Source: Pseudomonadota bacterium (GTDB taxonomy: Bacteria > Bdellovibrionota > FAC87 > UBA2466). From it: a stretch of 64,000 bases of DNA. Shown here one piece after another: positions 2-40,645 of this stretch (position 1 is the first letter of the stretch; each line of letters opens with the position of its first letter). Location of the stretch: contig JAYUGC010000091.1 in the NCBI GenBank assembly GCA_043767805.1, positions 1,467 through 65,466 on the forward strand, written 5' to 3'. Made by a program: the position numbers and the translations under genes. Below the pieces are notes generated by a model. It searched no databases. It was not told the DNA's origin and saw only the letters and a program-made list of their open reading frames with translations.

Positions 2-256
2 ATCAGTTGGACCGTGAAGGGAAAAACCCAAACCCATCTGTTGCCCGGCTATTACGACAACGAGTACACGGCGAAGGCGGCGGCCAAGGCATTACTCAAG
101 GCCCGAGGGGTCGAGGTAACCGACTTCAAAGTGTCCGATGTTGGCTCGGTTTTCCAAATCGTCGTGGAAGACATGAAGGAGCCCTGCCGCGTGAGCCGAG
201 AAGGAATTCCCCAATCTCCTCGTATCGAAGGCACGATCAGGTCATTAACACACTAG
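2..256 (+). CDS. hypothetical protein, C-terminal fragment (frame open to left window edge)
   Basis: Frame is open from nt 2 to TAG at 254-256 (listed ORF starts at GTG 14). No recognisable motif. The tail overlaps the convergent gene end by 20 nt. Confidence 0.3.
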   Translation: MSWTVKGKTQTHLLPGYYDNEYTAKAAAKALLKARGVEVTDFKVSDVGSVFQIVVEDMKEPCRVSREGIPQSPRIEGTIRSLTH

Positions 257-1532
257 CGCCGAGCGCATCGGGTCCGAGAAGCGGCACGGGCAGGCTTTTC
301 GGCGCGACCTCTAGCACTCGCGGGCGAATGTTTTCGATGAAGTTCGCGATGGGCAGAGAATCCCCGTACATACCGGCGAACGCGTTCGCCCAGCTCGGAT
401 TCTCTTTGAGCGCTCCCATGAAGCGCAAATCGTCTTCGGTCGCGGCGGCCATCTTCGCTTGCCGGCCCACCCACTGATAATAGTCGTTCAAGTCGGCTTC
501 CCGCCGGCGGCCGTAGCTAGCTCTGGTAATGCTTTCCGCCTCTCGGCCAAGCATCGCGGTGAGCGTTTCCGCGGCAAGCTCCGCGTCCCGAAAGGCGTGG
601 GTCATGCCGATGGCCGTGCACTGATCTTTCGTGCAAGCCGCATCGCCGACGAGCATCCAGCCGGGCCCCGCAGGCTTTCGCTTGAACGCTTTCTGATCGA
701 CGACGCCGTAAAGCTTTTCTTCCTGCTTGGCCGTGCGCAGCGCTTCCCCGTAGCCGGGGTTCACGAAAGCCGCCGCCCGCAGGTAATTCTCCTGAATGTT
801 TTTCTTAAAAAGCGGCGCCCATTCTTTCGGGCCAAACACGAGCGTCATGTTCGCGTTGTAGTTGGTCGGCACTATGACGAGCGCCAGTCTCCCGCGCTTT
901 TCCATCTTCGCCGCCGGCACTTTGAATCCGCTGAAGTAAGTCCAATAGGCGAACGTGCACTCGGCATCAATCGCCGAGACTTCCGCCTGCACCCATTTGG
1001 CTACCGAGGAATTTCGCCCATCCGCGCCAACTACGTAGCGAGCCCGCTCTTCGACCGTAGTCCCGTCGGCAAGCTTCGCGCGAATGCCGACCACTCGGTC
1101 GTTCTCCCAGATCAGACCTTCCACCGGAAAGTTCGGCCGGAACTCGACACCGCACTCGACGGCAGCATCGACTAAAATCTTATCGAGCACGAGACGGCGG
1201 ACGGAAGCATACGTATTTATCGCACCATTGCCATCCCCATGGGCGCTGAGCAACCGATCGCGCACCGCTTCGACCGGCGTCTCGCACGAAAACTCGATGC
1301 CGTCTCTCGCGAAATCGACTCGCGTATCGGACGGCGTCTCCGCGAGCACCCGATCTAAAATTCCCCAACGGTTCAAGTAGGACATGCCCCGAGGCCAAAG
1401 GAAATGCGTCGAGAGAGTATCTGACGGAAAACTAGTGCGATCGACGACGAGGACTTTCGCGCCACGTTTGGCGAGATTGAGCGCGGTGGCCGATCCCGCG
1501 CAGCGTGCCCCGACTAGGATGACGTCGTACAC
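237..1532 (-). CDS. FAD-dependent oxidoreductase/monooxygenase (geranylgeranyl-reductase/aromatic-hydroxylase-like fold)
   Basis: 431 aa with N-terminal dinucleotide-binding motif VILVGARCAGSATALNLAKRG. GTG start directly abuts the stop of the upstream gene (1533). No WxWxIP halogenase motif seen. Confidence 0.75.
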   Translation of the reverse strand: MYDVILVGARCAGSATALNLAKRGAKVLVVDRTSFPSDTLSTHFLWPRGMSYLNRWGILDRVLAETPSDTRVDFARDGIEFSCETPVEAVRDRLLSAHGDGNGAINTYASVRRLVLDKILVDAAVECGVEFRPNFPVEGLIWENDRVVGIRAKLADGTTVEERARYVVGADGRNSSVAKWVQAEVSAIDAECTFAYWTYFSGFKVPAAKMEKRGRLALVIVPTNYNANMTLVFGPKEWAPLFKKNIQENYLRAAAFVNPGYGEALRTAKQEEKLYGVVDQKAFKRKPAGPGWMLVGDAACTKDQCTAIGMTHAFRDAELAAETLTAMLGREAESITRASYGRRREADLNDYYQWVGRQAKMAAATEDDLRFMGALKENPSWANAFAGMYGDSLPIANFIENIRPRVLEVAPKSLPVPLLGPDALGASVLMT

Positions 1533-4307
1533 TTAATCCACCTTGTCCGCGGTTTGGGGCACGGGAAGCTGTTTTCTATCGAGTTTGCCATTCGGGGTCA
1601 GAGGAAATTCCTTGAGGAACACGAAGTAGTCGGGAATCTGATATACGGCGAGCTTCTTCTCAAGCCGCAGCTTGAGTGCGCCACGATCTTGCGCGGGCCC
1701 CACGAAGTAGGCGACGAGGCAGGCCTCGGTGGGATGGGAGACGACCACGCAGTCTCCAGGCGCGCCCGAATCCCGCAGCACTCCCTCGACTTCAGCGGGC
1801 TCGATACGGTAGCCACGCACTTTGATTTGATGATCGAGACGGCCCACGATTTCGATATCGCCGTTTAGGTGATATCGGGCGCGGTCCCCGGTCTTGTAGA
1901 GCTTACGGCCTTCCAAAGTGATGAATCTCTGGGCCGTAAGCTGAGGCTGGCCGCGGTACCCGCGAGCGAGTCCCGCGCCGCCGATGTGAAGCTCTGCGCT
2001 CTCGCCGATAGGGACCGGCTTCAAGGACTCATCGAGGATTTGAATTTCGGTATTGTCGATGGGCCGGCCAACGGTGACTGCTTCCGTGGACTTATCCATT
2101 TCACCGGCCGTCGACCAAATCGTCGTCTCGGTGGGGCCGTAAAGATTCCAAAGCCGCACGCCGCGGTCCAAAAGATCTTTGCGTAAGCCGGGAGGCATGG
2201 CCTCTCCGCCACATAGCGCTTTGAATCCGGGCTTACCTTTCCAACCGCCGTCTAAAATCGAGCGCCAGGTAACGGGCGTGGTCTGGAGAATCGTCGCGCC
2301 GCTCTCTTCCACCGCTTTGGCCAAACGAACACCGTCAAAGACCACGGGCCGAGGCACGAGGATGAGCTTCGCGCCCATCATCCAGGTCAGGTACAAATCG
2401 AGGCCCGCGATGTCGAAGGAAAGCCCCGTCGGCGACAAAAGCACTTCTTTCTCGGTGAAGTCGAAGAGCCGCTGCATGCTGGATAGAAAATTGATGACCG
2501 GCTTGTGACTGACTTCCACGCCCTTCGGACGTCCCGTCGAGCCCGAGGTGTATAGCAGATACGCGAGGTTCTCAGGCCGCACGCCTGAATCGACCGAACT
2601 CGTCGGCAAAGCGCTCCAAGGCGCATCGGCTCTCGGAAACGGAATCGACTCTCCCGAAAATAGGTCCAAAGGCTCGGTCACGCTCTCGTGTACGAGGAGC
2701 ATCTTCGCTTTCGAATCGGTCACCATGTGCTCGAGCCGCTCGCGCGGGTACTGCGGATCGATGGGAACGTAGGCTGCGCCGGCTTTCAGTACGCCCAGCA
2801 CCGCGACCATGAGCTCCAAAGATCGCGGGATGTGTAGCCCGACTACATCCTCCGGCCCAACGCCGCGAGCTTTCAAATAATGGGCGAGCTGATTCGCCCG
2901 CGCTTCGAGCTCGGCGTAGGTGAGCTTCACGCCGTCTAAGTCGACGGCGACCGCATTGGGCACTCGATCGGCCTGTCTCTCGAATAACTGATGGAGGCAG
3001 ACCGTCTCGTCAAAGAGTCTGTGCGTTTCGTTCCAGGCCTTCAAAGGCAGCGGCGCGACTTCCATCTCATAGAGGCCGTTCTTCTCGAGAGCGCGTAAAA
3101 CGAGAAGATCTCGCTCTACTTGGTCCTTCTCGGGATAGACCAGCATTACAAACCCAGGGCAGGTGAAGAAATCGACTGTACGGCGCAGAGGGTAACCGGG
3201 CTTTGCCCGCATCCGCATTTCGTTGAAAGACGGTAAGGCTCGAATCACGGCTTCGCCAGGCACGCTCTTCACGATGCCTTCTTGCTCGGAAATTAAAGAC
3301 ACCGAGAGCGAGTACTGCTTCAGCACATAGGGCTTCGCGGCCTTACGATGGAAGGCTTCCGGGTCGACGTAGGCGTCGACGGTAAGATCGAGCTGGCCGT
3401 ACCCCACGCAAGCTTCATTGAGCTGAGGCGTGGTGATGCCGTTTAACCGCGTTCCCACTTCCACCAAGGCCGGCCCCCGGGGCGTCAGCATGATTTCCGC
3501 GTGTGAGGGCCCTTCGGTAATCTGAAGAGCGTCGAGGGCTTTGACGGCGTAATCGCGAAGCACGGTGCCTTCTTCGCTCGTCGCCTCGACGAGGCCGTCG
3601 CGGTCGTAAACGAAGTTGCGGCCGTTCACGCGAACTTTGTAATACTTCCAGATGGCCGTGCAGTGCGCTTTACCCGCGAGGCTCACCAAGTCCAAGGCGA
3701 ACTCGGGACCTTCCAAAAACTCTTGCGCGAGGACTTCTTCATTCAAAAGCCCAATCTGGTTTACTTTGCCGAGGATGCGATCGAAGGCGTCTCGAATCTC
3801 CGCCTCCCCGGTGCAAATGGCGACGCTGTCGGTGCCTGCGCTCTTTAAAGGCTTCAAGACCACTTTAGAAAAGCCGTGCTTAGCGGTCCACGCGAGAATG
3901 GTCTCGACGTCCGTCGACTTAATCTGCTCGGCGACGAGAAGACCCTTCGCCCGTACCGCCTCGATCATCTTGTACTTGTCCCGACGAGCGGCGCTGAGCT
4001 CAATGCCGTTCCCCGGAGTGCCTAGGCCATCGCTCAAGGCATCGGCAAGCTCGACGCCGGTTTCGGTACCCGCGACGACGCACACGGGATTAAAGAGCTT
4101 AAGGTTCGCAAGCAATTTCGGGAGATCCCCGTCGAAAGCAAAGTGCGCTTCGTAGTCCGCGGGGCGATAGGTAATATTGAGGAGCGCCCAAATCTCGGGC
4201 GTGCTTTGTACGTGAATCGAAGTGTAGCCCCGGCCCTTGAACTCGCCCGGAAGGAAATTTCCAGCGGAGTAGCCGTCGACAATGACCGCGTATTTTTTCT
4301 TGCTCAC
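1533..4307 (-). CDS. ATP-grasp (L-amino-acid-ligase-like) :: adenylation (AMP-binding) didomain protein without carrier domain
   Basis: 924 aa. Residues ~1-420 are ATP-grasp-like. The C-terminal half carries NRPS-type A-domain cores LAYLLYTSGSTGRPKGV (A3), YGPTETT (A5), YKTGDRARY (A7), GRLDHQIKVRGYRIEPAEVE (A8) and PLTPNGKLDRK (A10). The ORF ends 12 aa after A10. GTGA start/stop overlap with the MATE gene. Confidence 0.85.
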   Translation of the reverse strand: MSKKKYAVIVDGYSAGNFLPGEFKGRGYTSIHVQSTPEIWALLNITYRPADYEAHFAFDGDLPKLLANLKLFNPVCVVAGTETGVELADALSDGLGTPGNGIELSAARRDKYKMIEAVRAKGLLVAEQIKSTDVETILAWTAKHGFSKVVLKPLKSAGTDSVAICTGEAEIRDAFDRILGKVNQIGLLNEEVLAQEFLEGPEFALDLVSLAGKAHCTAIWKYYKVRVNGRNFVYDRDGLVEATSEEGTVLRDYAVKALDALQITEGPSHAEIMLTPRGPALVEVGTRLNGITTPQLNEACVGYGQLDLTVDAYVDPEAFHRKAAKPYVLKQYSLSVSLISEQEGIVKSVPGEAVIRALPSFNEMRMRAKPGYPLRRTVDFFTCPGFVMLVYPEKDQVERDLLVLRALEKNGLYEMEVAPLPLKAWNETHRLFDETVCLHQLFERQADRVPNAVAVDLDGVKLTYAELEARANQLAHYLKARGVGPEDVVGLHIPRSLELMVAVLGVLKAGAAYVPIDPQYPRERLEHMVTDSKAKMLLVHESVTEPLDLFSGESIPFPRADAPWSALPTSSVDSGVRPENLAYLLYTSGSTGRPKGVEVSHKPVINFLSSMQRLFDFTEKEVLLSPTGLSFDIAGLDLYLTWMMGAKLILVPRPVVFDGVRLAKAVEESGATILQTTPVTWRSILDGGWKGKPGFKALCGGEAMPPGLRKDLLDRGVRLWNLYGPTETTIWSTAGEMDKSTEAVTVGRPIDNTEIQILDESLKPVPIGESAELHIGGAGLARGYRGQPQLTAQRFITLEGRKLYKTGDRARYHLNGDIEIVGRLDHQIKVRGYRIEPAEVEGVLRDSGAPGDCVVVSHPTEACLVAYFVGPAQDRGALKLRLEKKLAVYQIPDYFVFLKEFPLTPNGKLDRKQLPVPQTADKVD

Positions 4308-5713
4308 GCTAAAGCCTCATTCACTTTCGTCCCTTGTACCCAGTTCCAGAGCACATAGGCGGCCACCGCGAAAATTCCGGCGGTAAGCCCTCCCCAGAAG
4401 CCCAGTACGCCGAGCCCGAGGGAGAAACAAAGGTAGTACCCGATCGGTAGCCCCAGAATCCAGTACCCCAGAAAATTTCCCACCATGGCGGCGCGGGTAT
4501 TGCCCAGGCCGCGCAAAGCCCCGCACCCGACGCTTTGAATGCCGTCCGCCACTTGAAAGACCGCGGCCAGCATCAAGAGCCGTCGCCCGAGCTCGATGAC
4601 GCCCGCGTCTTGGCTGAAAAGACCGACGATGGGCGCCCCTAGCGTGAACATAATCACCGCGAAGCAAGCCATGACGCTCGCGCCAAGCCCAATCGACGTC
4701 CAACCGGAGAGCCGCGCCTGAACGGGATTTCCTTCTCCTAACGCTTGGCCCACCAGCACCGCGGTGGAGGCGGCGATGCCGTAGGGAACCATGTAAGTGA
4801 GACCCGCGAGATTTAAGACGATGGTGTGGGCCGCAAGTGAAATCGCGCCCAAAGGGACGATGAGCGTCGTCGCGAGCGAAAAGACGCCTGACTCAAAGAG
4901 GAGTTGCCCGCCGGCGGGAAGGCCCACTTGGAGAAGCCGCTTCATTCCCCTGGTATCAAAGGCGAGCGAGGCTTTGCTGAGCCCCAGCTCGAGACGCTTA
5001 TCTCTATGAAGCGCATAGACCAGGATGACTGCCGCCATGAGCGTGCGGCTAATCGTCGTCGCCACGCCCGCCCCGGCCACCCCGAACGCTTTCGCGCCCA
5101 GATTCCCGAAGATGAGCACCCAGTTGAGATAGGCGTTCAAAGCGACGGCGACGATGGTGATCACCGTTCCCGCATGCACGTTGCTCATGGCCTGCAGGTA
5201 CTGACGAAACGAGATGAAAACGAGAAAGGGGAGAAGACTCCAGCTCAACGTGCTCAAGAAGGCTCGCGCCGGCACGGCGATCGTGGGATCGAAGCCGAGA
5301 GCGGGAAGATTGCCCGCGACGATTTGAAGCAGGAGCACGAGCGGCAATCCCAGCAGAAAAGAGAGATAAACCGCCTGCACCAGCCAGTAGTGGCACTCCT
5401 TCACGTCTTTGCGGCCGTAGGCATGGGATACGAGGTAATCGAGCCCAAAAAGCGTACCGGCGCTAAACAGCGTGAAAACGTAAAAGAGAGCGGAGCCCAG
5501 GCCCGCGCCGCCGATGGCCTCGGGGCCGAGCTTTCCCAGCATGTACGTATCGATGAGGATCATCACCATCTGCCCGACCTGGCCGAGAGCGAGCGGGGTG
5601 GCCATGGCGATAGTCTTCGGCAGCTGACCTTTTACCGCGCGAGACCATTCTGAGTACGTCACAGCAGAACGTCTTAGCAGAGAGTTTGGTGCCGTGCGAA
5701 AAAACAGTTCCAA
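4304..5713 (-). CDS. MATE family efflux transporter
   Basis: 469-aa polytopic hydrophobic protein with MATE/NorM-like N-terminus (PKTIAMATPLALGQVGQMVMILIDTYMLGKLG). Start uncertain: TTG 5713, GTG 5662 or ATG 5605. Confidence 0.85.
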   Translation of the reverse strand: MELFFRTAPNSLLRRSAVTYSEWSRAVKGQLPKTIAMATPLALGQVGQMVMILIDTYMLGKLGPEAIGGAGLGSALFYVFTLFSAGTLFGLDYLVSHAYGRKDVKECHYWLVQAVYLSFLLGLPLVLLLQIVAGNLPALGFDPTIAVPARAFLSTLSWSLLPFLVFISFRQYLQAMSNVHAGTVITIVAVALNAYLNWVLIFGNLGAKAFGVAGAGVATTISRTLMAAVILVYALHRDKRLELGLSKASLAFDTRGMKRLLQVGLPAGGQLLFESGVFSLATTLIVPLGAISLAAHTIVLNLAGLTYMVPYGIAASTAVLVGQALGEGNPVQARLSGWTSIGLGASVMACFAVIMFTLGAPIVGLFSQDAGVIELGRRLLMLAAVFQVADGIQSVGCGALRGLGNTRAAMVGNFLGYWILGLPIGYYLCFSLGLGVLGFWGGLTAGIFAVAAYVLWNWVQGTKVNEALA

Positions 5714-5769
5714 AGGCTAAACGACTCGGCTTATATGCTGGGCTCGCTCCCAACCCTCTAGGTGGTGCC

Positions 5770-6549
5770 ATGAACCCGGGCCTTTCCAAAAAAACTAAGT
5801 TGATTCTCGGGTCGGTGCTGGTCACCTATCTCATTCTGATGGCGGTGAAGGCTTGGGTACCCGAGACCGCTCCGGTCATCGGAATTCTCATCTGGCTCCA
5901 AGAGATCGGCCTGAACTTGGGCGCTCTCTATTTAGTCTCCCTTCACCTGCGCAAGAAGGATCCCGCCGATACCGCTTTTGATAGATGCGCTTATCAATGT
6001 CTCGCGGCTTCCCTGGTCTTTACACTGACGGCCTCTACCACCTACCAAATCCTCTCTCGCGGGTTTGGCTGGACGCTTGAAAAAGCGATGGGCACGCCGG
6101 TCGAACTAGCCATCAACATTCCCTACATGTCTTTCTTCGCGTTCGGCTTGGTCGCTCTTTGGCGCGGGCACAACGGCTACGCCCCCAAAGCGAACAAAAC
6201 CGCGCTGCTTTCTCTCGTACTCTTCGTCATGACCGTTCTGGCGTTTCGCCACGGACTGGCCGCGACCGAGAACCCGCTTCAGAACCGCACCATCCATTGG
6301 ATGTGCTTCGCTTTGGAGTGCGCGATCCTTACGGTTGGCGTAATCAACGCCTTAGCTCCGCCGCTAAGCCTTCGGTTCGTGAGCCTAGCTTACGTCTGCA
6401 TCGCGGCTTCGGGTTATCTCTTTCAGATTTATGAAATCTACCCGACTATCCCCTATCTCGATTTCCCCATCGATGCGTCCTGGACGCTGGGACAACTGCT
6501 TCTCGTCTCGGGCTTGAGCCTCACTGGCTCGGAGAAACTCAGGGCATGA
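5770..6549 (+). CDS. polytopic membrane protein, unknown function
   Basis: ATG at 5770 inside the listed ORF avoids overlap with the divergent MATE gene. Several hydrophobic helices. ATGA overlap with the next gene. Confidence 0.5.
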   Translation: MNPGLSKKTKLILGSVLVTYLILMAVKAWVPETAPVIGILIWLQEIGLNLGALYLVSLHLRKKDPADTAFDRCAYQCLAASLVFTLTASTTYQILSRGFGWTLEKAMGTPVELAINIPYMSFFAFGLVALWRGHNGYAPKANKTALLSLVLFVMTVLAFRHGLAATENPLQNRTIHWMCFALECAILTVGVINALAPPLSLRFVSLAYVCIAASGYLFQIYEIYPTIPYLDFPIDASWTLGQLLLVSGLSLTGSEKLRA

Positions 6550-7916
6550 CCGGAAAGCCCGCCACCGAGACGAAACACCTCGCCATCGTCGGCGCCGGCC
6601 CGAAGGCCATCGCCATCGCGGCGAAGGCCTCCGTCTTGAAGCGGCTGGGCTTCAAAGTTCCGGACATCACCATTTTCGAGCGCGGCCACATCGCCCACCA
6701 TTGGCGAGCGGAGTCCGGTTTTACGAACGGCAAGCTCACTCTCGGTACCGGTCCCGACAAAGACGTCGGCTTTCCGTATTATTCTTTCTGCTGGGGCGAC
6801 GCCGCGAACCGCAAGATCAACTACCTCATTCAGGAGTTCTCCTGGCAGAACTACCTGATTGCAACTCACGAGTTCGGCGATTGGGTCGATCGCGGTAAGC
6901 CCGCCCCCACCCACCACCATTGGGCAAGATATCTCGAATGGGTCTTTAAGCGCGTCGAAAAGAACGTGACTCTCGTGCAAGCGAACCTAAGCGAGGCCGA
7001 GGTTCAGGGCGACCACTGGAAACTGACCTCCGTCGATAAGTCGGGACAGAAAACGGAGACCCTCGCCGATGGCCTCGTCTTCACCGGCCCGGGCGAGCCT
7101 CGCTTTTCGGGAGGCTCCCTTCCGGTCCACGAGCGCATTCTCCGCATGGAGACCTTTTGGCTGAGATACAAAGAATATACGTCGCTCGAAAAAGCGTCCG
7201 TCGCCCTGGTCGGCACGGGGGAGACGGCGGCGACGATCGCGGTGGCGATGGCGCAATCAAGCCCCAACGTGCGCGTCGACATCATCTCGCCCAGCGCAAT
7301 GGCCTACTCGCGCGGCGAAAGCTACGTCGAGAACCATATTTACACCGACCCGTTCCAGGGTAACTGGCTGCACCTCACGCGGGAGGACCGGCGCAATTTC
7401 ATCAACCGCACCGATCGCGGCGTTTTCTCCATCTCCACCAAGCAGGAGATGGACAGGCTTAAGAACATCGAAATCGTGCCGGGCCTTTTCACGGGCATCA
7501 CGGTGGACTCGCTCGATCAGCTGGTCGTGAACATCGCCTACAACTCAGGCTCCGAAACGCGGCTCTACGACATGCTCATTCTCTCGGTGGGCTTCGATCA
7601 CCTGGAGTTCGTCAAACGCGTGCTCACGAAAAAGGCACAAGACCATCTGGTCTCGAAGGCGGCCTTACCCGATCTCTCGACCCCCAACGTGGAAGACAAG
7701 ATTGATCGCTACCTAGCGGTCGACGGCATGCGGCCCTATTTGCATCTGCCCATGCTAGCGGGGATGAGCCAAGGGCCGGGCTTCGCCAACTTGAGCTGCC
7801 TCGGGAGATTGTCGGATCATATTTTGTCTCGTTACGTTCCTCCGCAATCGGCGCTCCTCGCCGAGCATCCCATTCTTAGGGGCGTGAACGATTTTTCGAG
7901 TCATGACGGGTTCTGA
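6546..7916 (+). CDS. FAD/NADPH-dependent amine N-hydroxylase-like protein (IucD/PvdA/SidA class; Spb38-like candidate)
   Basis: 456 aa. FAD motif AIVGAGPKAIAIAAKA (cf. IucD GVGTGPFNLSIAAL), second dinucleotide motif VALVGTGETAATIAVAMA, and a distal DMLILSVGF (cf. ATGY region). The spacing matches lysine/ornithine N-monooxygenases. Confidence 0.55.
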   Translation: MTGKPATETKHLAIVGAGPKAIAIAAKASVLKRLGFKVPDITIFERGHIAHHWRAESGFTNGKLTLGTGPDKDVGFPYYSFCWGDAANRKINYLIQEFSWQNYLIATHEFGDWVDRGKPAPTHHHWARYLEWVFKRVEKNVTLVQANLSEAEVQGDHWKLTSVDKSGQKTETLADGLVFTGPGEPRFSGGSLPVHERILRMETFWLRYKEYTSLEKASVALVGTGETAATIAVAMAQSSPNVRVDIISPSAMAYSRGESYVENHIYTDPFQGNWLHLTREDRRNFINRTDRGVFSISTKQEMDRLKNIEIVPGLFTGITVDSLDQLVVNIAYNSGSETRLYDMLILSVGFDHLEFVKRVLTKKAQDHLVSKAALPDLSTPNVEDKIDRYLAVDGMRPYLHLPMLAGMSQGPGFANLSCLGRLSDHILSRYVPPQSALLAEHPILRGVNDFSSHDGF

Positions 7917-9012
7917 CATCATCGTCCTCGGCGCGGGTGGCCTGGGAAGCGCCATTCTTCAACACCTAGCCAAGGCGGGAGCGAACGTTCTCGGCATCGA
8001 TCGCCATCATCCCCCTCACCGGCACGGCAGTAGCCACGGCAACACTCGGCTCATTCGCAAGGCTTACTTCGAGGATACGCGCTACATCCCGCTTCTCGAA
8101 CGCAGCTACGAATTGTGGCGAAACTTGGAGCAGGCGTCGGGAAAGACCCTTTACCGAGAGACCGGCCTCTTAATTCTGCGAGACACCGAAACGGGTTTTA
8201 CGGCAAAAGCGCTGGAGAACGCAAAAGCCAATAACGTCGAGATGGACCGGCTCGACGCTTCCGAGCTAAAAGCGCGCTTTCCTCAGTTCGAAGTGAGCCC
8301 GGACGTGCACGGGCTCTTTGAAAGACAGGCGGGCTACTTGAACGTCGAGGCTTCCGTCCAAGCCCATCTCGAGCAAGCCAAACGCTCGGGCGCCCACTTT
8401 GCCTTCAATGAGACGGTCCAATCGTGGAGCGTGCGCCACGGCAAAGTCACCGTCCGCACCGACAAGAAGAAGTACACCGCGAAACAGCTCGTTCTCGCTC
8501 CCGGCGCGTGGACCGCGGGCCTTCTTAAAGACTTCGGCATGTCTTTCACCGTGAGACGGGGCGTGCAGTTCTGGTTCGCGGGCCTTCCCAAGCACCAGAC
8601 TATTCCCTGCTTTGGCTTTGCGGTCGGAGACACTTTCATTTACGGCTTTCCGCAAATTCCGGGAGTAGGGCTAAAAGCCGCGGACTACGCGCCTTCCGAC
8701 GTCTTGAAAGTCCCCGAGGATCAAACCTCCGGCTTTCGGCCCGATGAGCTTTTGCCGGTGACCTCCCGGCTACAGAGATTTCTACCCGACGTAAGCCCCG
8801 TGCCGATTGCTTCGAGCCCTTGCCTCTATTCCATCACCCGGGACGAGAACTTCTTGATCGACCGCCACCCCGAGCACTCGGAAGTCTTTCTCGCGGCGGG
8901 AGATTCCGGCCATGCGTTTAAATTCGCGCCGGTCATCGGAGAGATGGTGACGGGGATGGCCCTGGGCTCGTCGCCCAAGTTTGATTTGAGCTTCTTGGCC
9001 TACCGAAGCTGA
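7903..9012 (+). CDS. monomeric sarcosine oxidase / N-methyltryptophan oxidase family FAD amine oxidase
   Basis: 369 aa. IIVLGAGGLGSAILQHLAKAG then HGSSHGNTRLIRKAYFED, typical of the MSOX/SolA family. 14-nt overlap with the upstream gene. Confidence 0.75.
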   Translation: MTGSDIIVLGAGGLGSAILQHLAKAGANVLGIDRHHPPHRHGSSHGNTRLIRKAYFEDTRYIPLLERSYELWRNLEQASGKTLYRETGLLILRDTETGFTAKALENAKANNVEMDRLDASELKARFPQFEVSPDVHGLFERQAGYLNVEASVQAHLEQAKRSGAHFAFNETVQSWSVRHGKVTVRTDKKKYTAKQLVLAPGAWTAGLLKDFGMSFTVRRGVQFWFAGLPKHQTIPCFGFAVGDTFIYGFPQIPGVGLKAADYAPSDVLKVPEDQTSGFRPDELLPVTSRLQRFLPDVSPVPIASSPCLYSITRDENFLIDRHPEHSEVFLAAGDSGHAFKFAPVIGEMVTGMALGSSPKFDLSFLAYRS

Positions 9013-10424
9013 TTGAGAACCGCGACAAGCGTGTCCACGTGCTCTTTTTGCGTCGCGAAGTTAGAGATGCCCGCCCGCAATACGTCCTGCCCCGTGTGAT
9101 AGAGCTTGGTCGGCGTAATCCAGGTCTTGCCCGTTTCCCCGACACGTTTCGCGAACGTTTTGACGTCGAGAGAGGGCTGCTTCGGGTCGACGAAGCAAAC
9201 GACCGGAAGCGCCGTCTCGTTCACGACTTTCCATCCGTTTACTTCGAGCTTTTCTCGCAAGTAGCCGCCCATCTCAATCTGATGGCGGAGGACTTTTTGA
9301 TAGCCCTCTTCGCCGTGCACCGCGAGCGTCAGAAAGAGCTTCAGGCCCGTAAAGCGACGCGACCACTGCAGGGATTGCTTGTAGGGCTCCGCGTACTCGG
9401 CAGCGTGCGTGCCAGGAGGCATGTAGTGGCTCGCCTCGACACTAAAGGTCTCTTCCAAAATGTTCGCGTGAGGCGTGAAGAAGATCCCCGCGCCCATTGG
9501 CACCGACAGCCACTTATGCGCATCGAGAGTCAGAGAATCGGTTTTCTCGACGCCCGCGAAAAGCGCGCGGTGCTCAGGTAAAAGAATGGCCGCCCCACCC
9601 CAAGCCGCATCGGCATGGAGCCAAAGGCCGTGGCGTTTCGCCACTTCCGCTATCGGGTCCAAAGCATCAAAGACGCCCGCGCTGGTGCTTCCGAGAGTCG
9701 CGACCACGAATAGCGGCAACTTCCCCGCCGCCTTATCAATCGATATCTGTTTATCGAGAGCCGCCACATCGAGCTGAAGCCGCGCATCGACCGGAAGCTC
9801 CACCACGCTCTTCGTGCCTAGCCCGCAGACGCGGGCCGCACGCAAAAACGAATGATGGGTTTCCTTCGAAGTGTAGAGGACCGGCCTATATGTCCCGACC
9901 CCGTCCGTGCGGAAATCGGGCAGCTTTGCCGCCAACGCACAAAGAACCGCCGTATAGTTCGCTTCGGTACCACCCGTGGTGAAGCAGCCTCTTACGGAAC
10001 CGGACGGATACCCGAACTTCATCCCGAAATACCGCACGAGATGGTTCTCCATCTCGATGCAAACCTTGGCGCTCGCCGTGGAGGCAAGCTGGGGGTTGAA
10101 GCTCGCGACCAAGAGGTCGGCCGCGACTCCCATGGTGGAAGGGCTCGGGTTGAACACCCCGAAGTAGGCGGGGTGACTCGTATGAAGAAGCCCCTCTTTA
10201 AGGAGCGTTCCGACCTGGGCCACGACCGAGGCGGACCTTTGAGGAGCCTGGAAATCTTGGGTCTTTAGATAAGCGGAGAGGGCGGCGCTTTGGTCGGAAG
10301 GCGCGACGGGAAGACGGGCGACCTCACCGAGGTGGCTTTCCATGAGAGCAGAGAGCTGACCCCAAAGCGCTTGCCGCTCTTTTTGGGGGAGCAAGAGACC
10401 GAATCCTTCCCGAAACGGGTCCAT
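9000..10424 (-). CDS. group II pyridoxal-phosphate-dependent amino-acid decarboxylase
   Basis: 474 aa. PLP-lysine motif SLTLDAHKWLSVPMGAG and TTGGTEANY. Length and layout match aromatic-amino-acid/DABA/glutamate decarboxylases. Confidence 0.85.
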   Translation of the reverse strand: MDPFREGFGLLLPQKERQALWGQLSALMESHLGEVARLPVAPSDQSAALSAYLKTQDFQAPQRSASVVAQVGTLLKEGLLHTSHPAYFGVFNPSPSTMGVAADLLVASFNPQLASTASAKVCIEMENHLVRYFGMKFGYPSGSVRGCFTTGGTEANYTAVLCALAAKLPDFRTDGVGTYRPVLYTSKETHHSFLRAARVCGLGTKSVVELPVDARLQLDVAALDKQISIDKAAGKLPLFVVATLGSTSAGVFDALDPIAEVAKRHGLWLHADAAWGGAAILLPEHRALFAGVEKTDSLTLDAHKWLSVPMGAGIFFTPHANILEETFSVEASHYMPPGTHAAEYAEPYKQSLQWSRRFTGLKLFLTLAVHGEEGYQKVLRHQIEMGGYLREKLEVNGWKVVNETALPVVCFVDPKQPSLDVKTFAKRVGETGKTWITPTKLYHTGQDVLRAGISNFATQKEHVDTLVAVLNQLR

Positions 10425-10504
10425 TTCCTTACTCCCTGGGTTATTGCGTTAGAGGGCGGCTCCGAGTTAAGTTGCGGTGCAACAAAGCTAGGGCGGTTCT
10501 AAAC

Positions 10505-12436
10505 ATGATCATTCAGAAGATCAACCCTTCTCAGCTCGAGAAGGCCTACAACATTCGCTGTCAGGGACTCTACCCTTTGAAACGCGAGCATTTCTTTGCT
10601 CCGTTCGGCTCCGCCTATTGCGAGGTCGAGCCCCAAGGTTTTTCCGCGCGCCACAATCACCACGAGAACGAAACGTTCTACATTCTCCAAGGTTCGGGCA
10701 CGATGGAGATCAACGGCGAGAAGGAAAACGTCTCGGCCGGCGACGTCATCTTGATCCCCGCGCTCTCTCACCACCGGCTGGACAACACGTCGACCACCGA
10801 GCGTTTGAACTTCGTCTCCGTCTACTGGAGTGCGCCGCTCGTTCCCGAGATTCCGAAACACCTTCTCGTCATCCCGGCGCCACCCACGCCGAACGGCCCG
10901 CTTCATCTAGGTCATCTTTCAGGACCGTATTTCGCGGCCGATGTGTACACGCGCTACGCGACTTCTCGCGGCTCGAATGCGTTTTATGCGATGGGTACGG
11001 ACGACAACCAGTGTTACGTCGCGGCCAAGGGACGCTTGCTCGGTCTCACGGGAGAAGAAGTCGTCGATAAGTTCACGCCCCTGATCACGAGCGCCCTGGA
11101 AGACTTCGGCTGCAACGTGACGACGTTCTTACATCCCCTCGGCCAGGGCGATTACACGCGCTTCGTGCAAGAGACCTTCGTGACCCTCATGGAAAGAGGA
11201 GTCATCGAGCTTCGGACGGTACCGACGCCTTTCTGTGAAGCCACCCAGCAGTTTCTCTACGGCGCTCAAGTCACGGGCAAATGCCCCACTTGTAAGCAGC
11301 TGACCAGCGGCCAAAGTTGCGAAGCGTGCGGCGCCTACAACGACGCTTGGGACCTCATCGAGCCCAAGTCGAATGTGGGTAAGGGCCCGGTCGTGCTGAA
11401 AGACGCCGAGAAATACTATTTCCCGCTTTCGAAATACGCCGACAAACTGAGAACGATTCTCGCCCAAGTGTCCATGCATCCGAAGTTGCGCGCGTTCTAC
11501 GACGCGTACCTGGACCGTGGGCTTCCGGATGTCGCCGTCACGCAGTTTGGCGAATGGGGCGTGCCCTGCCCGCTCATGGACGGCCAAGTCCTCTACGAAT
11601 GGTTCGAGATGGCGGGAAGCTACTTCCACCTTTCCGATCAGGTTTGCGAAACGAAAGGCGAACCCGCTTTTTGGCAAGACAAGCTCGCGGGCGTCGTCGA
11701 GTGCTTCGGCTTCGACAATAGTTTCTTCTACGGCTTGCTCGTTCCGGCTTTGATGAGCGAGATCGACCCGTCGTCGCATCCGCCGAAGGCGTTTCTTTTT
11801 AATTTCTTCTATAACCTAGACGGCAAGAAGTTCTCGACGAGCCGGGGCCACGCGGTCTGGGCCCACGAGATTCTCGCAACAGTGCCTCCGGATGCGATTC
11901 GCTTTTACCTCGCCAAAACCCGCCCCGAGGACATCGAGACCAACTTCAATTTGAATGAGATGACCGCCTTCGTCGAGCGGGAGCTGGTCGGCCGGTGGGA
12001 ACCGTTCCTGGCGGCAGTCACGACCGGCACCGTTCCGGCGTTCACGGATTCTCTCGCCTGGGACCACGAGCGGTTTCTGTCGCGCGTGAACCGCATCGTC
12101 GAAGAAATTCATCAGCACTACAACGTCGACCGCTTCTCTCTGAACGCGGCCGCCGAGGGCCTGATCGAGCTCTTCAACACCGTCTCGCTCTTTCATGCTC
12201 GGTTTGATGCCCTCGATCCGCGGGCCCGCAACCTGACGGCGCAGGCCTTGCGCGCTTGGGCGACGCTTCTGACTCCCCTCATGCCGGAGTTCGGCGCGAA
12301 AGTCGCCAAAGCGATGAGCGCCTCGGGCAAAGCCACTTTGATTACTGAGCTTCGTACCGACTCTTCTATCGATGAGCTCCCCAAGCGCGACTTGAGCGAC
12401 GCCTTGGCCAAATTGAAAGCTTTCACTCATGGATAA
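10505..12436 (+). CDS. cupin :: methionyl-tRNA-synthetase-like didomain protein (candidate hydrazine synthetase, Spb40/Tri28/PyrN type)
   Basis: N-terminal cupin motifs RHNHHENETFYILQG and GDVILIPALSHHRLDN. Class I aaRS core follows: HIGH-type PNGPLHLGH, MetRS zinc knuckle CPTCK-x8-CEACG and KMSKS-type KFSTSRG. ATG at 10505 (the track opens at TTG 10472). Confidence 0.8.
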   Translation: MIIQKINPSQLEKAYNIRCQGLYPLKREHFFAPFGSAYCEVEPQGFSARHNHHENETFYILQGSGTMEINGEKENVSAGDVILIPALSHHRLDNTSTTERLNFVSVYWSAPLVPEIPKHLLVIPAPPTPNGPLHLGHLSGPYFAADVYTRYATSRGSNAFYAMGTDDNQCYVAAKGRLLGLTGEEVVDKFTPLITSALEDFGCNVTTFLHPLGQGDYTRFVQETFVTLMERGVIELRTVPTPFCEATQQFLYGAQVTGKCPTCKQLTSGQSCEACGAYNDAWDLIEPKSNVGKGPVVLKDAEKYYFPLSKYADKLRTILAQVSMHPKLRAFYDAYLDRGLPDVAVTQFGEWGVPCPLMDGQVLYEWFEMAGSYFHLSDQVCETKGEPAFWQDKLAGVVECFGFDNSFFYGLLVPALMSEIDPSSHPPKAFLFNFFYNLDGKKFSTSRGHAVWAHEILATVPPDAIRFYLAKTRPEDIETNFNLNEMTAFVERELVGRWEPFLAAVTTGTVPAFTDSLAWDHERFLSRVNRIVEEIHQHYNVDRFSLNAAAEGLIELFNTVSLFHARFDALDPRARNLTAQALRAWATLLTPLMPEFGAKVAKAMSASGKATLITELRTDSSIDELPKRDLSDALAKLKAFTHG

Positions 12437-13499
12437 GTTCGACGCCATCGTCATTGGAGGCGGCATCGTCGGCGCCTCCGCCCTTCACCAGCTGACCCGG
12501 CAGGGAAAGACCAGAAACCTCCTTCTCGAAAAGAAAGCGGGCTTTGGCCGCGGCGCCACCGGTTCCTGGGGCTCACTCGTTCGCATGTTTCACTTGAGCC
12601 TTGCGACCACGACGTCGGCCGCAAAAAGCGTTCCCTTTTATCTCGATTTCAAAAAGCACACCGGCGAGGACTTCAACTGGACCCGCACCGGATCGCTCTA
12701 TTTCCTGAAAGAACCTGAGTTGCCCCAGTTCGAGGCGCATTTCGAACAGCTTAGGAGATCAGGTCTCGAGTTCGAACTGATCCGAGCAAGAGAAGGCAAA
12801 CAACGCTTCCAAGATTTTTCCTGGTACGAGAATGATGTCGCGGTCTATGAGCCAAACGCCGGTGTGGCTTGCCCCTGGAGCACGACCGAATCGTTTCTGC
12901 ATGCGGCCGAGAAGCTCGGCGCCACCTCCAAGCTCAATACGGAAGTCACCGAAGTTCTGTCTCAGGGCGACAAAATCAGGGGCGTCCGGACGTCTAACGG
13001 CGCCGAGTACGAGTGCGACCTGCTGGTAGTCGCCTCCGGCGTTTGGACCAATGCCTTACTGGAAAAGATCGGCACGACTTCCAGCGCCTTTTCGAAGTCG
13101 CTTCAGCTTAATCGGTTTTGCCGGCACCACGGCGACGTCTCTCATCCCTTCTTCATCGATAAGGCGTCGCAGACTTTCGGCCATCCCTCGCAAAGCGGCT
13201 CCTTCATCGGCGGCTACTTGGGAGGCGAAGCCAAGAACGGGGATCATTCCGTCGAGCACGTGAGCCTTCTCGATGCAAATGAAGCGAAGCAAAAGATTTC
13301 CCAGCGCATCCCTTGGGTCAAGAATGCTACGCTAGAGGGTGGCATCCGCGCTTTGGAAGCCTACACGAACACCAACGTGGGCATCGTCGAACGGTCCGCC
13401 AGTTACGACAACCTCATCGTCACTACCGGATGGAGCTGCTCGGGCTTCACTTTGGCGCCGGTCGCGGGCCAGCGGGTGGCCGAGGCCGCTCTGCACTAA
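12429..13499 (+). CDS. DAO-family FAD-dependent oxidoreductase (Spb39-like candidate)
   Basis: 356 aa with N-terminal FDAIVIGGGIVGASALHQL. Length is that of glycine/D-amino-acid-oxidase-like proteins. 8-nt overlap with the cupin::MetRS-like gene. Confidence 0.75.
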   Translation: MDKFDAIVIGGGIVGASALHQLTRQGKTRNLLLEKKAGFGRGATGSWGSLVRMFHLSLATTTSAAKSVPFYLDFKKHTGEDFNWTRTGSLYFLKEPELPQFEAHFEQLRRSGLEFELIRAREGKQRFQDFSWYENDVAVYEPNAGVACPWSTTESFLHAAEKLGATSKLNTEVTEVLSQGDKIRGVRTSNGAEYECDLLVVASGVWTNALLEKIGTTSSAFSKSLQLNRFCRHHGDVSHPFFIDKASQTFGHPSQSGSFIGGYLGGEAKNGDHSVEHVSLLDANEAKQKISQRIPWVKNATLEGGIRALEAYTNTNVGIVERSASYDNLIVTTGWSCSGFTLAPVAGQRVAEAALH

Positions 13500-13954
13500 T
13501 GGATATCTATCTCGACGCCGATGCGAGCCCCAATAAGGAAGACACGTTTCGTGTCGCCAAGCGCTACAACTTGAAGGTCTTCGTCGTTTCGAATACGCCC
13601 AAGCACATCCCTCGGGAAGACTGGATCGTTCAGATACTGGTCGAAAAGGATTTCGACGCCGCCGACAACTGGATTGCGGATCACGTTCAGAAGGACGACA
13701 TCGTCATCACGAACGACTTGCTACTCGCCGGCCGTTGCGTGAAGAAGGAAGCCCGGGTCATCGACCCGCGCGGCAGGATCTTAGACGAGGACAACATCGG
13801 TGACGCCCTCTCGACGCGTGAGCTGATGTCCGAGCTCAGACAACGGGGGGAGCTCAACCTTGGCCCCAAGAAAATGGGCAAGAACCACCGTTCCGCCTAC
13901 CTCTCTGGCCTCGATGAGCTCATCAATCAGGTGCTCAGACAAAAACGGGCGTGA
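13499..13954 (+). CDS. yaiI: YaiI/YqxD family protein (UPF0178)
   Basis: 151 aa from the internal ATG. IYLDADASPN, DDIVITNDLLLAG and DPRGRIL align with E. coli YaiI IWVDADACPN, GDLVITADIPLAA and NPRGERY (recalled from memory). TAATG overlap with the DAO gene. Confidence 0.75.
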   Translation: MDIYLDADASPNKEDTFRVAKRYNLKVFVVSNTPKHIPREDWIVQILVEKDFDAADNWIADHVQKDDIVITNDLLLAGRCVKKEARVIDPRGRILDEDNIGDALSTRELMSELRQRGELNLGPKKMGKNHRSAYLSGLDELINQVLRQKRA

Positions 13955-19651: not shown

Positions 19652-19729
19652 GGCAATGGCCTCCTGCTTTTTGTAGTAGTGGTGCGAAAAGCGTGCCGGA
19701 CCGTGGCTGCCCCATTAGAATTTCTCTCC

Positions 19730-25481: not shown

Positions 25482-25912
25482 TTCAATCGCTTGAGCAGGA
25501 GGGAAAGGCCCTCCGTGTAGGACTTCCACCCCAGTCCCGAGACTTGGGCCACGCAGACTGCCTTCGTCACCGACTTTCGCCGGAAGGCTTCCCTCTTCTT
25601 GATGTCGGAGAGATGGACTTCGACCGCGGGTAAATCCACGGCCGCAATCGCGTCCCGAAGGGCGAGGGAGTAATGCGTGTACGCCGCGGGGTTGATGACT
25701 AGGCCATCGGCCCATTTTCTCTGCGCGTGGAGAAAATCAATCAGCTCGCCCTCGCCGTTCGCCTGAAAGAAGCGAAGCTCCGCTTTGCCAGCCGCCGCCT
25801 TCTTGATGTTCGCGTTGATCTCTTTCAGCGTCAGCGTGCCGTAAATATCGGTCTCTCTGGTACCGAGCAGATTTAAGTTAGGCCCGTGAACGACGAGAAT
25901 CTTCTTTTTCAC
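25478..25912 (-). CDS. aroQ: type II 3-dehydroquinate dehydratase
   Basis: 144 aa with N-terminus [25 protein letters not shown]. Confidence 0.9.
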
Positions 25913-26982: not shown

Positions 26983-26984
26983 CC

Positions 26985-28665: not shown

Positions 28666-28674
28666 CGTCTCTCC

Positions 28675-31906: not shown

Positions 31907-31953
31907 CTCGGTTAACCCTATAATAAAGCAACAGAAAAGGCGAGGATGCCCGA

Positions 31954-32997: not shown

Positions 32998-33011
32998 AAG
33001 GTAGTTAGTAT

Positions 33012-40393: not shown

Positions 40394-40402
40394 AAACACC
40401 TC

Positions 40403-40553: not shown

Positions 40554-40645
40554 CCTGTTTTAACTATTACTTGAAACCCGAAACCGAATCAACCCTTGGC
40601 GGTGACAATTCTTGCGTCTTGAGTCGGCACTCGGACTTCTGCCAA

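Follow-up and report, generated by a model that had tools for sequence, protein, structure and literature searches.

Within a 64-kb stretch of the 66.4-kb metagenomic contig JAYUGC010000091.1 (assembly GCA_043767805.1; lineage Bdellovibrionota), hereafter the window, we identified an evolutionarily conserved gene cluster centred on an enzyme that forms nitrogen-nitrogen (N-N) bonds, a hydrazine synthetase (HS). All coordinates below follow the numbering of this full stretch. On balance, we favor the reading that positions 237 to 13499 form one biosynthetic gene cluster for a small N-N-containing metabolite, assembled without carrier proteins; judging from the predicted specificities of its enzymes, the product is probably a small glycine-derived hydrazine or hydrazide compound. 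To our knowledge, HSs are the largest N-N bond-forming family, with more than 1000 predicted members and only a handful tied to products. An earlier reading, made from the letters of this DNA before any database search (the sequence-only reading), had proposed a hydrazine-forming locus here, and we note below where our results agree with it and where they do not.

The protein at the center of the cluster is, by its catalytic residues and closest structural matches, a bona fide HS and not a housekeeping methionyl-tRNA synthetase (MetRS). It consists of an N-terminal zinc cupin (residues 1-110) fused to a MetRS-like O-aminoacyl-hydroxylamine synthetase domain. The cupin keeps H50, H52, E56 and H90, which are invariant in 10 relatives and carry the same numbers in PyrN, where mutagenesis covered all four and E56 proved essential (PMC8664883). 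In the second domain, the motifs HLGH (134-137) and KFSTS (442-446) align with HLGH (147-150) and KFSTG (458-462) of PyrN, and T128, N130, Q169, D404 and N405 correspond in the alignment to PyrN T141, N143, Q182, D420 and N421, the five residues that bind the aminoacyl-adenylate and N6-hydroxylysine (bioRxiv 10.1101/2025.08.22.671884). The best PDB matches were to the C-terminal domain of PyrN (PyrN-C; 9VQ4/9L8V, 240 bits), while the highest-scoring MetRS structure, that of P. abyssi, reached 181 bits and that of E. coli 126 bits. The protein has one four-cysteine zinc knuckle (C260, C263, C272, C275), compared with two in PyrN. These results bear out the sequence-only reading on the identity of this fused cupin::MetRS-like protein.

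We regard it as barely credible that this protein is instead a second methionyl-tRNA synthetase, such as an antibiotic-resistant copy. The Pfam model tRNA-synt_1g does match at 231 bits and Anticodon_1 matches weakly, as would be expected of such an enzyme, but all NCBIfam MetRS models missed their equivalog cut-offs (best score 244.9 bits against cut-offs of 336-633), KFSTS stands in place of KMSKS, and a catalytic cupin is fused at the N-terminus. Moreover, the protein lies nearer to PyrN-C than to any MetRS, so that it does not group with the housekeeping enzymes, and N-hydroxylase and oxidase genes always adjoin it. An exact-sequence search with the window HS matched no record. The nearest homologues of the HS are only 58-59% identical and derive from metagenome-assembled genomes (MAGs), and we therefore rejected the possibility that the locus is the Pseudomonas orientalis por cluster.

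To predict the amino acid that the HS uses, we considered the eight pocket positions of Matsuda, which in Spb40 are T128, P129, D169, Q172, W371, M374, N412 and H416. At these positions the glycine-using Spb40 and AzsN both have TPDQWMNH, ThzN, which uses threonine, has SADQWYGH, and the glutamate-using PyrN has SFVQALNR (PMC12376268; bioRxiv 10.1101/2025.08.22.671884). Mapped onto PyrN-C with the spacing checked, the pocket of the window HS is APDQWMNY (A125, P126, D166, Q169, W366, M369, N405, Y409), which is identical to the glycine motif of Spb40 and AzsN at six of eight positions and differs from it by T to A and H to Y. The same alignment columns returned TPDQWMNH in the HSs of a Streptomyces tri/azs-type cassette, a Bacillus plasmid and a Mesorhizobium symbiosis plasmid. 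In this pocket W, M and N close the side-chain space, and ThzN has G for N, which admits threonine (PMC12376268). Because the window HS keeps the cavity-closing W, M and N, we predict that it most likely uses glycine, although alanine or serine would also be possible. Within the clade of the window HS, the motif APDQWMNY does not vary. It is also found in an HS on Rhizobium rhizogenes plasmid pC5.7b (locus L022), where N-hydroxylase, FAD oxidoreductase and HS genes form an operon (6606-11016 of that locus) adjoining Rieske, DapA, GNAT, TauD and PEP-mutase-family genes. This strain is cultured, making it a tractable organism in which to study the substrate of the APDQWMNY pocket.

Next, we assessed whether the genes around the HS are conserved. 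We searched 185,579 species genomes with two peptide patterns specific to the clade and obtained seven loci, hosted by a groundwater Deltaproteobacteria MAG, by Pseudobdellovibrionaceae, Bdellovibrionales and Bdellovibrionota MAGs, by a Bacteroidota MAG fragment and by two Ca. Uabimicrobium genomes (Planctomycetota). We compared the gene content of related loci, which carry handles such as L003, in a tblastn matrix. The same enzyme set surrounds HS homologues (38-59% identity) on independent contigs from several phyla: the N-hydroxylase (NMO), the oxidase resembling monomeric sarcosine oxidase (MSOX), the pyridoxal phosphate (PLP)-dependent decarboxylase, the HS, the DAO-family oxidoreductase and the ATP-grasp ligase occur together in L003, L006, L008, L014, L015 and L018, and all but the ATP-grasp occur in L001, the contig of which ends inside the cluster. 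ATP-grasp homologues (36-59% identity) were present in every sufficiently long related locus, spanning three phyla, and each of these loci also contains an N-hydroxylase and an FAD oxidoreductase. Decarboxylase homologues (43-64% identity) were found in L001, L003, L006, L008, L009, L014, L015 and L018, MATE homologues in L003, L008, L009, L013, L014, L015 and L018, and N-hydroxylase homologues (46-62% identity) on the same contigs as HS homologues. The DAO gene follows the HS gene in every related locus; in the window, L001, L003 and L006 the MSOX-like oxidase gene comes after that of the N-hydroxylase; and GNAT, ATP-grasp and decarboxylase genes form an overlapping sub-operon in L008 and lie next to one another in L014 and L015. 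The loci differ in gene order but retain the same genes, which speaks for a functional connection. This arrangement is far beyond chance, and the co-conservation that the sequence-only reading had looked to in relatives is indeed present.

Two components vary within this set. The NRPS-type adenylation (A) domain and the PF01494 flavoprotein are limited to a sub-clade comprising the window, L003 and L009, except that L001 too has the A domain. An Acetyltransf_3 GNAT of about 190 residues occurs in every relative that has no A domain, and in L001, and is absent from the window, L003 and L009; the whole 64 kb yielded neither a GNAT nor a SnoaL homologue. This near-complementary distribution of GNAT and glycine A domain suggests that glycylation may replace N-acylation of the hydrazine in the sub-clade of the window.

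The right border of the cluster is placed at 13499 as the YaiI gene and the genes to its right have no counterparts near the HS of relatives. The sequence-only reading had counted YaiI as a member, but tblastn detected no YaiI homologue near the HS in any related locus, and YaiI shares the operon, to which it is translationally coupled (its ATG overlaps the DAO stop codon as TAATG), but is probably not part of the pathway. We likewise rejected as members a 616-residue open reading frame (ORF), a poly-gamma-glutamate hydrolase, a methyltransferase and a DAO::Rieske fusion further downstream, none of which is conserved near the HS in relatives. One related cluster is strongly reduced: in L005/L011, on a 2.4-Mb contig of a Bdellovibrionales MAG, it comprises only GNAT, ATP-grasp, HS and DAO genes with several transposase genes around them, and an N-hydroxylase homologue lies elsewhere on the contig. 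This cluster may be decaying or mobilised. Among named genomes, the HS clade was found mostly in Bdellovibrionota MAGs and the prey-engulfing Ca. Uabimicrobium (L009, L010/L008, L011/L005, L013, L014, L015), which hints at an association with predatory lifestyles, though this is a count over seven loci only.

We then characterized the individual enzymes. The N-hydroxylase had a single PDB match, the L-Lys N6-monooxygenase NbtG (4D7E, E = 1.5 × 10−82), and JGI labels its relatives as mycobactin lysine N-oxygenase. PF13434 scored 57 bits on this protein compared with 310-350 bits on the N-hydroxylases beside Streptomyces, Bacillus and Rhizobium HSs, with which it shared no or only marginal BLASTP similarity. 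The sequence-only reading was right in assigning an amine N-hydroxylase, but the protein is NbtG/MbtG-like, where an IucD-like enzyme had been proposed. Its substrate would be lysine or a related diamine or diamino acid. The DAO-family protein gave distant PDB matches to sarcosine and glycine oxidases and is 28.5% identical (E = 1 × 10−40) to the FAD oxidoreductase of a Bacillus plasmid HS cluster; it is presumed to cleave the hydrazine adduct oxidatively.

To compare these enzymes with characterized systems, we took the PyrN-C structures of the PDB and a cassette on a Streptomyces plasmid to stand in for the Spb, Tri, Apy, Por and Fuz proteins; this tri/azs comparator was identified from the genes it contains and is distinct from the published cluster. 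Like Spb38-40, Tri26-28, AzsLMN and PyrM-PyrN, the window encodes a didomain cupin::MetRS-like enzyme with identical catalytic residues, linked to a PF13434 N-hydroxylase and a PF01266 flavoprotein. The window HS is only about 32% identical to the tri/azs-type Streptomyces HS, however, and neither the N-hydroxylase nor the DAO had a BLASTP match to its tri/azs-type counterpart (E ≤ 1 × 10−3), although both oxidases belong to PF01266. The triad that the sequence-only reading had equated with that of the Spb and Tri pathways is thus composed of the same enzyme families but is not an orthologous cassette, and by this comparison only the HS appears clearly shared. The window is also without the tri/azs carrier protein, AMP-ligase/carrier protein pair, C45 peptidase, acyl-CoA-dehydrogenase-like enzyme, saccharopine dehydrogenases and GNAT. 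Conversely, it adds the PLP decarboxylase and the MSOX-like oxidase, which were correctly singled out beforehand as additions: neither has a match in Spb, Tri, Azs, Pyr or the other characterized HS pathways that we compared.

The MSOX-like oxidase exceeded the cut-off of the N-methyltryptophan oxidase model NF008425 (375 bits; cut-off 257) and matched MSOX structures in the PDB at 217-234 bits. It keeps the equivalents of Cys315, which binds FAD covalently, and of H45, R49, R52, K265, Y317 and K348, of which R52 and K348 bind the substrate carboxylate; the active-site His269 of MSOX is replaced by Tyr. Hydrazinoacetate would be isosteric with sarcosine, and our literature search returned no link between sarcosine oxidases and hydrazinoacetate. 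The decarboxylase carries its PLP lysine in a DAHK motif and is about equidistant (128-164 bits) from the CSAD/GADL1, DOPA, DABA and DesA decarboxylases. Decarboxylases of several kinds stand beside HSs. A PLP group II enzyme is found in the window and in L018, both with the APDQWMNY pocket; AdoMet_dc-like pyruvoyl enzymes adjoin APDQWMNY HSs in L016 (12189-12653) and L017 (12271-12723); and a PanD-like aspartate-decarboxylase-family protein (4616-5101) adjoins the HS of L019, which has the pocket PADQWFNY.

Two further proteins are less well placed. The PF01494 flavoprotein gave weak PDB matches (40-48 bits) to flavin halogenases and monooxygenases and is distant from both geranylgeranyl reductases and halogenases; given this low similarity and its lack of a WxWxIP motif, we rejected its assignment as a halogenase. 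Its homologues (56-57% identity) are confined to L003/L004 and L009, where the A domain is found as well, and the protein may be an accessory tailoring enzyme. The membrane protein had no Pfam or NCBIfam match and is translationally coupled to the N-hydroxylase; a homologue (35-38% identity) was found in the L003/L004 cluster only. It possibly serves in transport or self-protection.

A further protein of the cluster is a ligase didomain. Residues 1-416 form an ATP-grasp domain of the L-amino-acid-ligase type (ATP-grasp_4, ATP-grasp_3, LAL_C2; NF005543, 420.6 bits, cut-off 302), which matched a PDB entry deposited as an L-amino acid ligase (30vh, 241 bits). It also matched the DdaF model (231 bits, E = 2 × 10−68), but the equivalog cut-off of 840 was missed, and the protein is not a DdaF equivalog. 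Residues ~420-924 form an NRPS-type A domain (TIGR01733, 395.7 bits, cut-off 317.4) that is 33-45% identical to A domains of megasynthases. Its ten Stachelhaus positions read DILQLGLIWK, which we take to be the canonical glycine adenylation code; L003 and L009 have the same code and L001 has DILQLGVIWK. A reported glycine code, DILQLGMIWK, is one residue off that of the window (PMC12283262). The ATP-grasp and A domain are fused only in the window and are encoded by separate overlapping genes in L003 and L009.

The carrier-less A domain thus appears to carry a glycine code, and the absence of condensation and thiolation (T) domains or a carrier protein, as stated in the sequence-only reading, is correct for this locus. 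The didomain terminates at the A10 motif PNGKLDR without a thiolation domain, no protein of the cluster matched the PP-binding or Condensation domains of Pfam, and a six-frame scan found no serine motif of a peptidyl carrier protein (PCP) within the cluster. As the only non-coding DNA amounts to 164 nt and 80 nt (244 nt in total), there is no space for a carrier-protein gene. By contrast, the A domain on a Ralstonia megaplasmid (L024, 9025-16292) is followed by a 92-residue PCP with a GIDSL motif, annotated as hypothetical, whereas the window clade has no PCP.

The sequence-only reading had listed the ligase didomain among enzymes absent from described pathways, but ligases as such are not new to hydrazine biosynthesis. 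In the triacsin and azaserine (tri/azs) pathways a GNAT and an AMP-ligase, followed by an FAD dehydrogenase, act on hydrazinoacetate, and Tri31/AzsS acylate the hydrazine nitrogen (PMC10445470). Fuscazine (Fuz) of Microbispora fusca is a hydrazide tripeptide built by two ATP-grasp ligases, one of which, FuzC, forms the hydrazide on the free hydrazino acid (PMC13149037). By description, the Fuz pathway resembles the window in combining an HS cassette with ATP-grasp chemistry into an NRPS-independent route to a small peptide-like product (PMC13149037). It differs in its split cupin and MetRS-like proteins, Arg/hydroxy-Arg acceptor, Fe/2OG hydroxylase, AlaX tRNA deacylase and actinomycete host, while the window has one ATP-grasp fused to a T-less glycine A domain, a decarboxylase, an MSOX-like oxidase and a MATE exporter; no AlaX-type domain was found among the ORFs scanned in 1-20 kb.

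Several plasmid-borne clusters are also similar in outline. Those of the Bacillus cereus group and Pantoea ananatis share NMO, HS, FAD oxidoreductase, ATP-grasp and exporter with the window, and their GNAT has a counterpart in relatives of the window but not in the window itself. Their N-hydroxylases are of the IucD type, their ATP-grasp is unrelated or very distant (≤23% identity), an arginase or substrate-binding protein takes the place of the PLP decarboxylase, and they have neither MSOX-like oxidase nor A domain; the Bacillus HS pocket is TPDQWMNH in contrast to APDQWMNY. These clusters are relatives of the Bac1-Bac2 pair that Matsuda et al. reportedly studied in 2024. A Ralstonia solanacearum megaplasmid cluster of the Ral1-Ral2 type is akin to the window in combining HS, stand-alone A domain, GNAT and FAD oxidoreductase in a Gram-negative host, but its cupin and MetRS-like proteins are split and its A domain is 28% identical. 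Outside N-N chemistry, which they lack, the dapdiamide (DdaG/DdaF) and E-64 pathways resemble the window in having an ATP-grasp and an adenylating ligase act in sequence on free intermediates; the adenylating enzyme of the window is a true NRPS-type glycine A domain and not of the DdaG or amide-bond-synthetase (ABS) type. In E-64 biosynthesis, an ATP-grasp works with an amide-bond synthetase and a decarboxylase supplies the amine (PMC12568646). The Gram-negative host, advanced in the sequence-only reading as a novelty, is not one, as HSs from Pseudomonas orientalis, Ralstonia, Burkholderia, Bradyrhizobium, Mesorhizobium, Colwellia and Corallococcus have already been assayed (PMC11705231; bioRxiv 10.1101/2025.08.22.671884).

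Taken as one pathway, these enzymes could act as follows. The NbtG-like flavoprotein would N-hydroxylate lysine, or a related diamine or diamino acid, at its terminal amine. The family assignment of the HS is shown by the comparisons above; its MetRS-like domain would adenylate a small amino acid, most probably glycine, and esterify it to the N-OH, and its zinc cupin would rearrange this ester into a hydrazine. As gene coupling and precedent suggest, the DAO would then cleave the adduct oxidatively to release a free hydrazine block, most simply hydrazinoacetate. The ATP-grasp and the T-less glycine A domain would extend this block by joining free substrates through amide or hydrazide bonds, in that the hydrazine nitrogen, a strong nucleophile, would attack glycyl-AMP or an acyl phosphate. 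The aminoacyl-AMP held by a T-less A domain is readily trapped by alpha-effect nucleophiles, which is the basis of the hydroxylamine-trapping adenylation assay. More speculatively, the PLP decarboxylase may supply or trim an amine partner; this role is favored by its coupling to the ATP-grasp in three loci and has a parallel in E-64 (PMC12568646). Equally speculatively, the MSOX-like oxidase may oxidise the N-substituted-glycine (hydrazinoacetyl) unit towards a hydrazone, akin to AzsF/Tri22, while the PF01494 flavoprotein may tailor the product and the MATE transporter may export it. The expected product is a glycine-rich hydrazide or hydrazone pseudo-peptide. The sequence-only reading is supported in that the product is an undescribed one.

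Several points weigh against this pathway or parts of it. None of the members of the clade has a known product or activity. Two of the eight pocket residues depart from the glycine motif (T to A, H to Y), so that alanine and serine remain candidate substrates, and the APDQWMNY pocket is itself common, being carried by 82 of the 120 best database matches of the HS. Because the N-hydroxylase and DAO are not close to Tri26/Tri27-like enzymes, the use of lysine and the regiochemistry of cleavage are guesses. Free hydrazines inactivate PLP enzymes, which restricts the possible place of the decarboxylase in the pathway. The genome could encode, away from this locus, a carrier protein that the A domain loads. 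Finally, L001 has both GNAT and A domain, the MSOX-like gene was not seen within the fetched part of L009, and the window truncates the cluster on its left side, where the first gene ends at 237.

We considered other explanations for the gene set. The main alternative, which is possible though not probable, is that the pathway runs through a diamine: the decarboxylase would yield cadaverine, putrescine or 1,3-diaminopropane, which would be N-hydroxylated and coupled by the HS to glycine, an oxidase (possibly the MSOX-like one, acting on N-substituted glycine) would remove the glycine carbon as glyoxylate, and the ligases would acylate the resulting aminoalkyl-hydrazine. Pairs of decarboxylase and N-hydroxylase (DesA/DesB, RhbB/RhbE) are standard in hydroxamate siderophore pathways and count for this route, and the best NCBIfam match of the decarboxylase, albeit far below the cut-off, is the DABA decarboxylase RhbB. 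Both N-hydroxy-putrescine and N-hydroxy-1,3-diaminopropane are reported substrates of HSs (PMC11705231; PMC12376268), and an Apy10-type cleavage on the amino-acid side is known (PMC11705231). Three non-homologous decarboxylase families beside HSs with this or a similar pocket point the same way, as does the arginase, a substrate-supply enzyme, that adjoins the N-hydroxylase in the Bacillus plasmid cluster; a conserved decarboxylase would be hard to justify if lysine were a disposable nitrogen donor. However, the sole structural relative of the N-hydroxylase is an L-lysine enzyme, NbtG, the decarboxylase is no closer to basic than to acidic or aromatic amino-acid decarboxylases, and in L008, L014 and L015 it is coupled to the ATP-grasp and not to the N-hydroxylase. 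L016, L017 and L019, moreover, have unrelated N-hydroxylases and oxidases and possibly represent other pathways. The same decarboxylase and N-hydroxylase, together with the GNAT of the relatives, resemble DesABC and RhbBDE of siderophore biosynthesis, and the locus might be read as a hydroxamate siderophore-like pathway in which the HS-like protein is an auxiliary aminoacyl ligase. We consider this very unlikely, as Pfam detected no IucA/IucC, TonB-dependent receptor or siderophore transporter in the cluster and its flanks, the window has no GNAT, the cupin retains all residues for N-N formation and the HS-DAO pair is invariant.

Two other readings concern what becomes of the hydrazine. In one, hydrazinoacetate would be acylated or ligated and then oxidised by the MSOX-like enzyme to a 2-hydrazineylideneacetyl (glyoxylate hydrazone) group, as AzsF/Tri22 do on carriers, and the extra flavoprotein may go on to give a diazo ester or amide resembling azaserine. 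The tri/azs pathways set a precedent in the sequence of GNAT, activation and FAD-dependent dehydrogenation of the hydrazinoacetyl unit (PMC10445470). In the family core, too, a GNAT and an activating ligase are accompanied by an additional flavin amine oxidase that keeps the residues binding the glycine carboxylate, and the change of MSOX H269 to Tyr suggests a substrate other than sarcosine. We nevertheless hold such a carrier-free hydrazone or diazo warhead to be rather unlikely: Pfam and NCBIfam returned no carrier protein, no C45 peptidase and no homologue of either the diiron oxygenase AzsE/ThzE or the acyl-CoA-dehydrogenase-type AzsF/Tri22. Oxidation by MSOX enzymes, moreover, normally takes place on the N-alkyl side and not at the glycine alpha carbon, and the reading is purely analogical. 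In the other, which we find quite improbable, the left operon (MATE, ATP-grasp::A and flavoprotein) would be unrelated to the hydrazine genes and the hydrazine module alone would make a free hydrazino acid. The restricted occurrence of the A domain and PF01494 flavoprotein would fit this, as would the minimal NMO-HS-decarboxylase(-DAO) cassettes without a ligase in L016 and L017, but the ATP-grasp is found in every sufficiently long related locus and MATE in most, with constant content despite shuffled order.

A bolder extension of the favored carrier-free pathway, which we consider unlikely in its entirety, concerns the ligase didomain. The T-less glycine-coded A domain, fused to an L-amino-acid ligase, may constitute a new carrier-free "hydrazide synthetase," in which an alpha-effect hydrazine captures glycyl-AMP or an acyl phosphate. 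Together with the MSOX-like oxidase, acting on the sarcosine-isosteric hydrazinoacetyl unit, and the PLP decarboxylase, it may yield a reactive hydrazone- or diazo-type pseudo-peptide. Such a compound might be a weapon in predation or competition, a thought prompted by the near confinement of the clade to Bdellovibrionota-like MAGs and the prey-engulfing planctomycete Ca. Uabimicrobium.

The core N-N chemistry, its occurrence in Gram-negative hosts and the involvement of ATP-grasp ligases were all known before, and the cluster does not overturn current understanding. Four of its features have no match in the literature we compared: the conserved PLP decarboxylase, the MSOX-like second oxidase, the NbtG-type hydroxylase and the carrier-less glycine A domain coupled or fused to a ligase. 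Elucidating the pathway would add an N-N natural product, could add carrier-free hydrazide-forming biocatalysts and could show the role of the recurrent decarboxylase. The hosts are also unusual, being uncultured Deltaproteobacteria- or Bdellovibrionota-like bacteria and Ca. Uabimicrobium; these are uncultured or hard to grow, and several of them belong to predatory lineages. The cluster is a reasonable target for product discovery, yet it is one among many uncharacterised HS clusters.

The genes of the locus are listed below. All ten ORFs described in the sequence-only reading lie at or near the positions it gave, with the domains it named (ORF map, Pfam, NCBIfam), and they are organised, as described, in four transcription units within which stop and start codons abut or overlap. 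On the minus strand the MATE, didomain and PF01494 genes abut or overlap one another. The decarboxylase gene overlaps the convergent MSOX-like gene by 13 nt at its 3′ end and diverges from the HS gene across 80 nt. Start-codon analysis indicated that the MATE ORF, which reaches 5713, likely starts at the ATG at 5605 and that the membrane-protein ORF (5686-6549) likely starts at the ATG at 5770. No gene start was found in the 236 nt downstream of the PF01494 gene, the last of its operon.

Features of the hydrazine synthetase locus, in window coordinates
Feature	Position	Strand	Basis and remarks
FAD-dependent oxidoreductase/monooxygenase	237-1532	-	PF01494 (FAD_binding_3); last gene of MATE operon
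ATP-grasp/LAL_C2::NRPS-type adenylation didomain, 924 aa	1533-4307	-	Pfam, NCBIfam
MATE-family efflux transporter, probable exporter	4304-5605	-	PF01554; TIGR00797 274.6 bits
Divergent intergenic region, presumed promoters, 164 nt	5606-5769	.	Start-codon analysis
Multi-pass membrane protein without assigned family	5770-6549	+	Several hydrophobic segments
NbtG/MbtG-like class B flavin N-hydroxylase	6546-7916	+	PF13434 (Lys_Orn_oxgnase)
MSOX/MTOX-like flavoprotein amine oxidase	7903-9012	+	NF008425 375 bits; coupled to N-hydroxylase
Group II PLP amino-acid decarboxylase, monocistronic	9000-10424	-	PF00282 226 bits
Hydrazine synthetase, cupin::MetRS-like	10505-12436	+	Cupin_2 and tRNA-synt_1g
DAO-family FAD oxidoreductase, translationally coupled to HS	12429-13499	+	PF01266 156 bits
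YaiI/DUF188 protein	13499-13954	+	NF001095 143.9 bits (cut-off 139); PF02639

The GC content, GC3 and tetranucleotide usage of the locus match those of the neighbouring aro/trp genes, so that it is not recognisable by composition as an island. The earlier description of a biosynthetic island holds in the sense of a conserved cluster and fails in the sense of a recently transferred one. The attribution to a sigma-54-using genome found no support in the window, where -24/-12 matches were not enriched (25 versus 21.7 expected), no rpoN or sigma-54 activator domain occurred among the scanned ORFs and a consensus scan of the cluster intergenic regions found no sigma-54 site; RpoN is encoded on the contig of one relative. 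A scan of the cluster for sigma-70 consensus sequences and terminators was uninformative.

Finally, we examined the remainder of the window. The chorismate synthase is at most 82% identical to any database entry, with the best named matches (~64-65%) from Deltaproteobacteria and Oligoflexia MAGs. It belongs to an aromatic-amino-acid super-operon (25909-40399, mostly on the minus strand) that also encodes 3-dehydroquinate synthase, shikimate dehydrogenase, EPSP synthase, chorismate mutase/prephenate dehydrogenase, two DAHP synthases (one with a ferredoxin-like domain) and trpA, B, F, C, D, G and E; a prephenate dehydratase lies at 19679-20566. Nearer to the cluster, on the minus strand at 17244-19651, a SAM methyltransferase gene overlaps that of the DAO::Rieske [2Fe-2S] fusion (509 aa), and the poly-gamma-glutamate hydrolase-like gene (16577-17260) adjoins this pair. 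Many large ORFs (307-616 aa) at 40571-54266 and 14087-15937 have no Pfam family at E ≤ 1 × 10−5, which fits a poorly sampled lineage. The window also encodes an FG-GAP repeat protein (49279-51417) and a papain-like C70/C39 peptidase (57706-58275).

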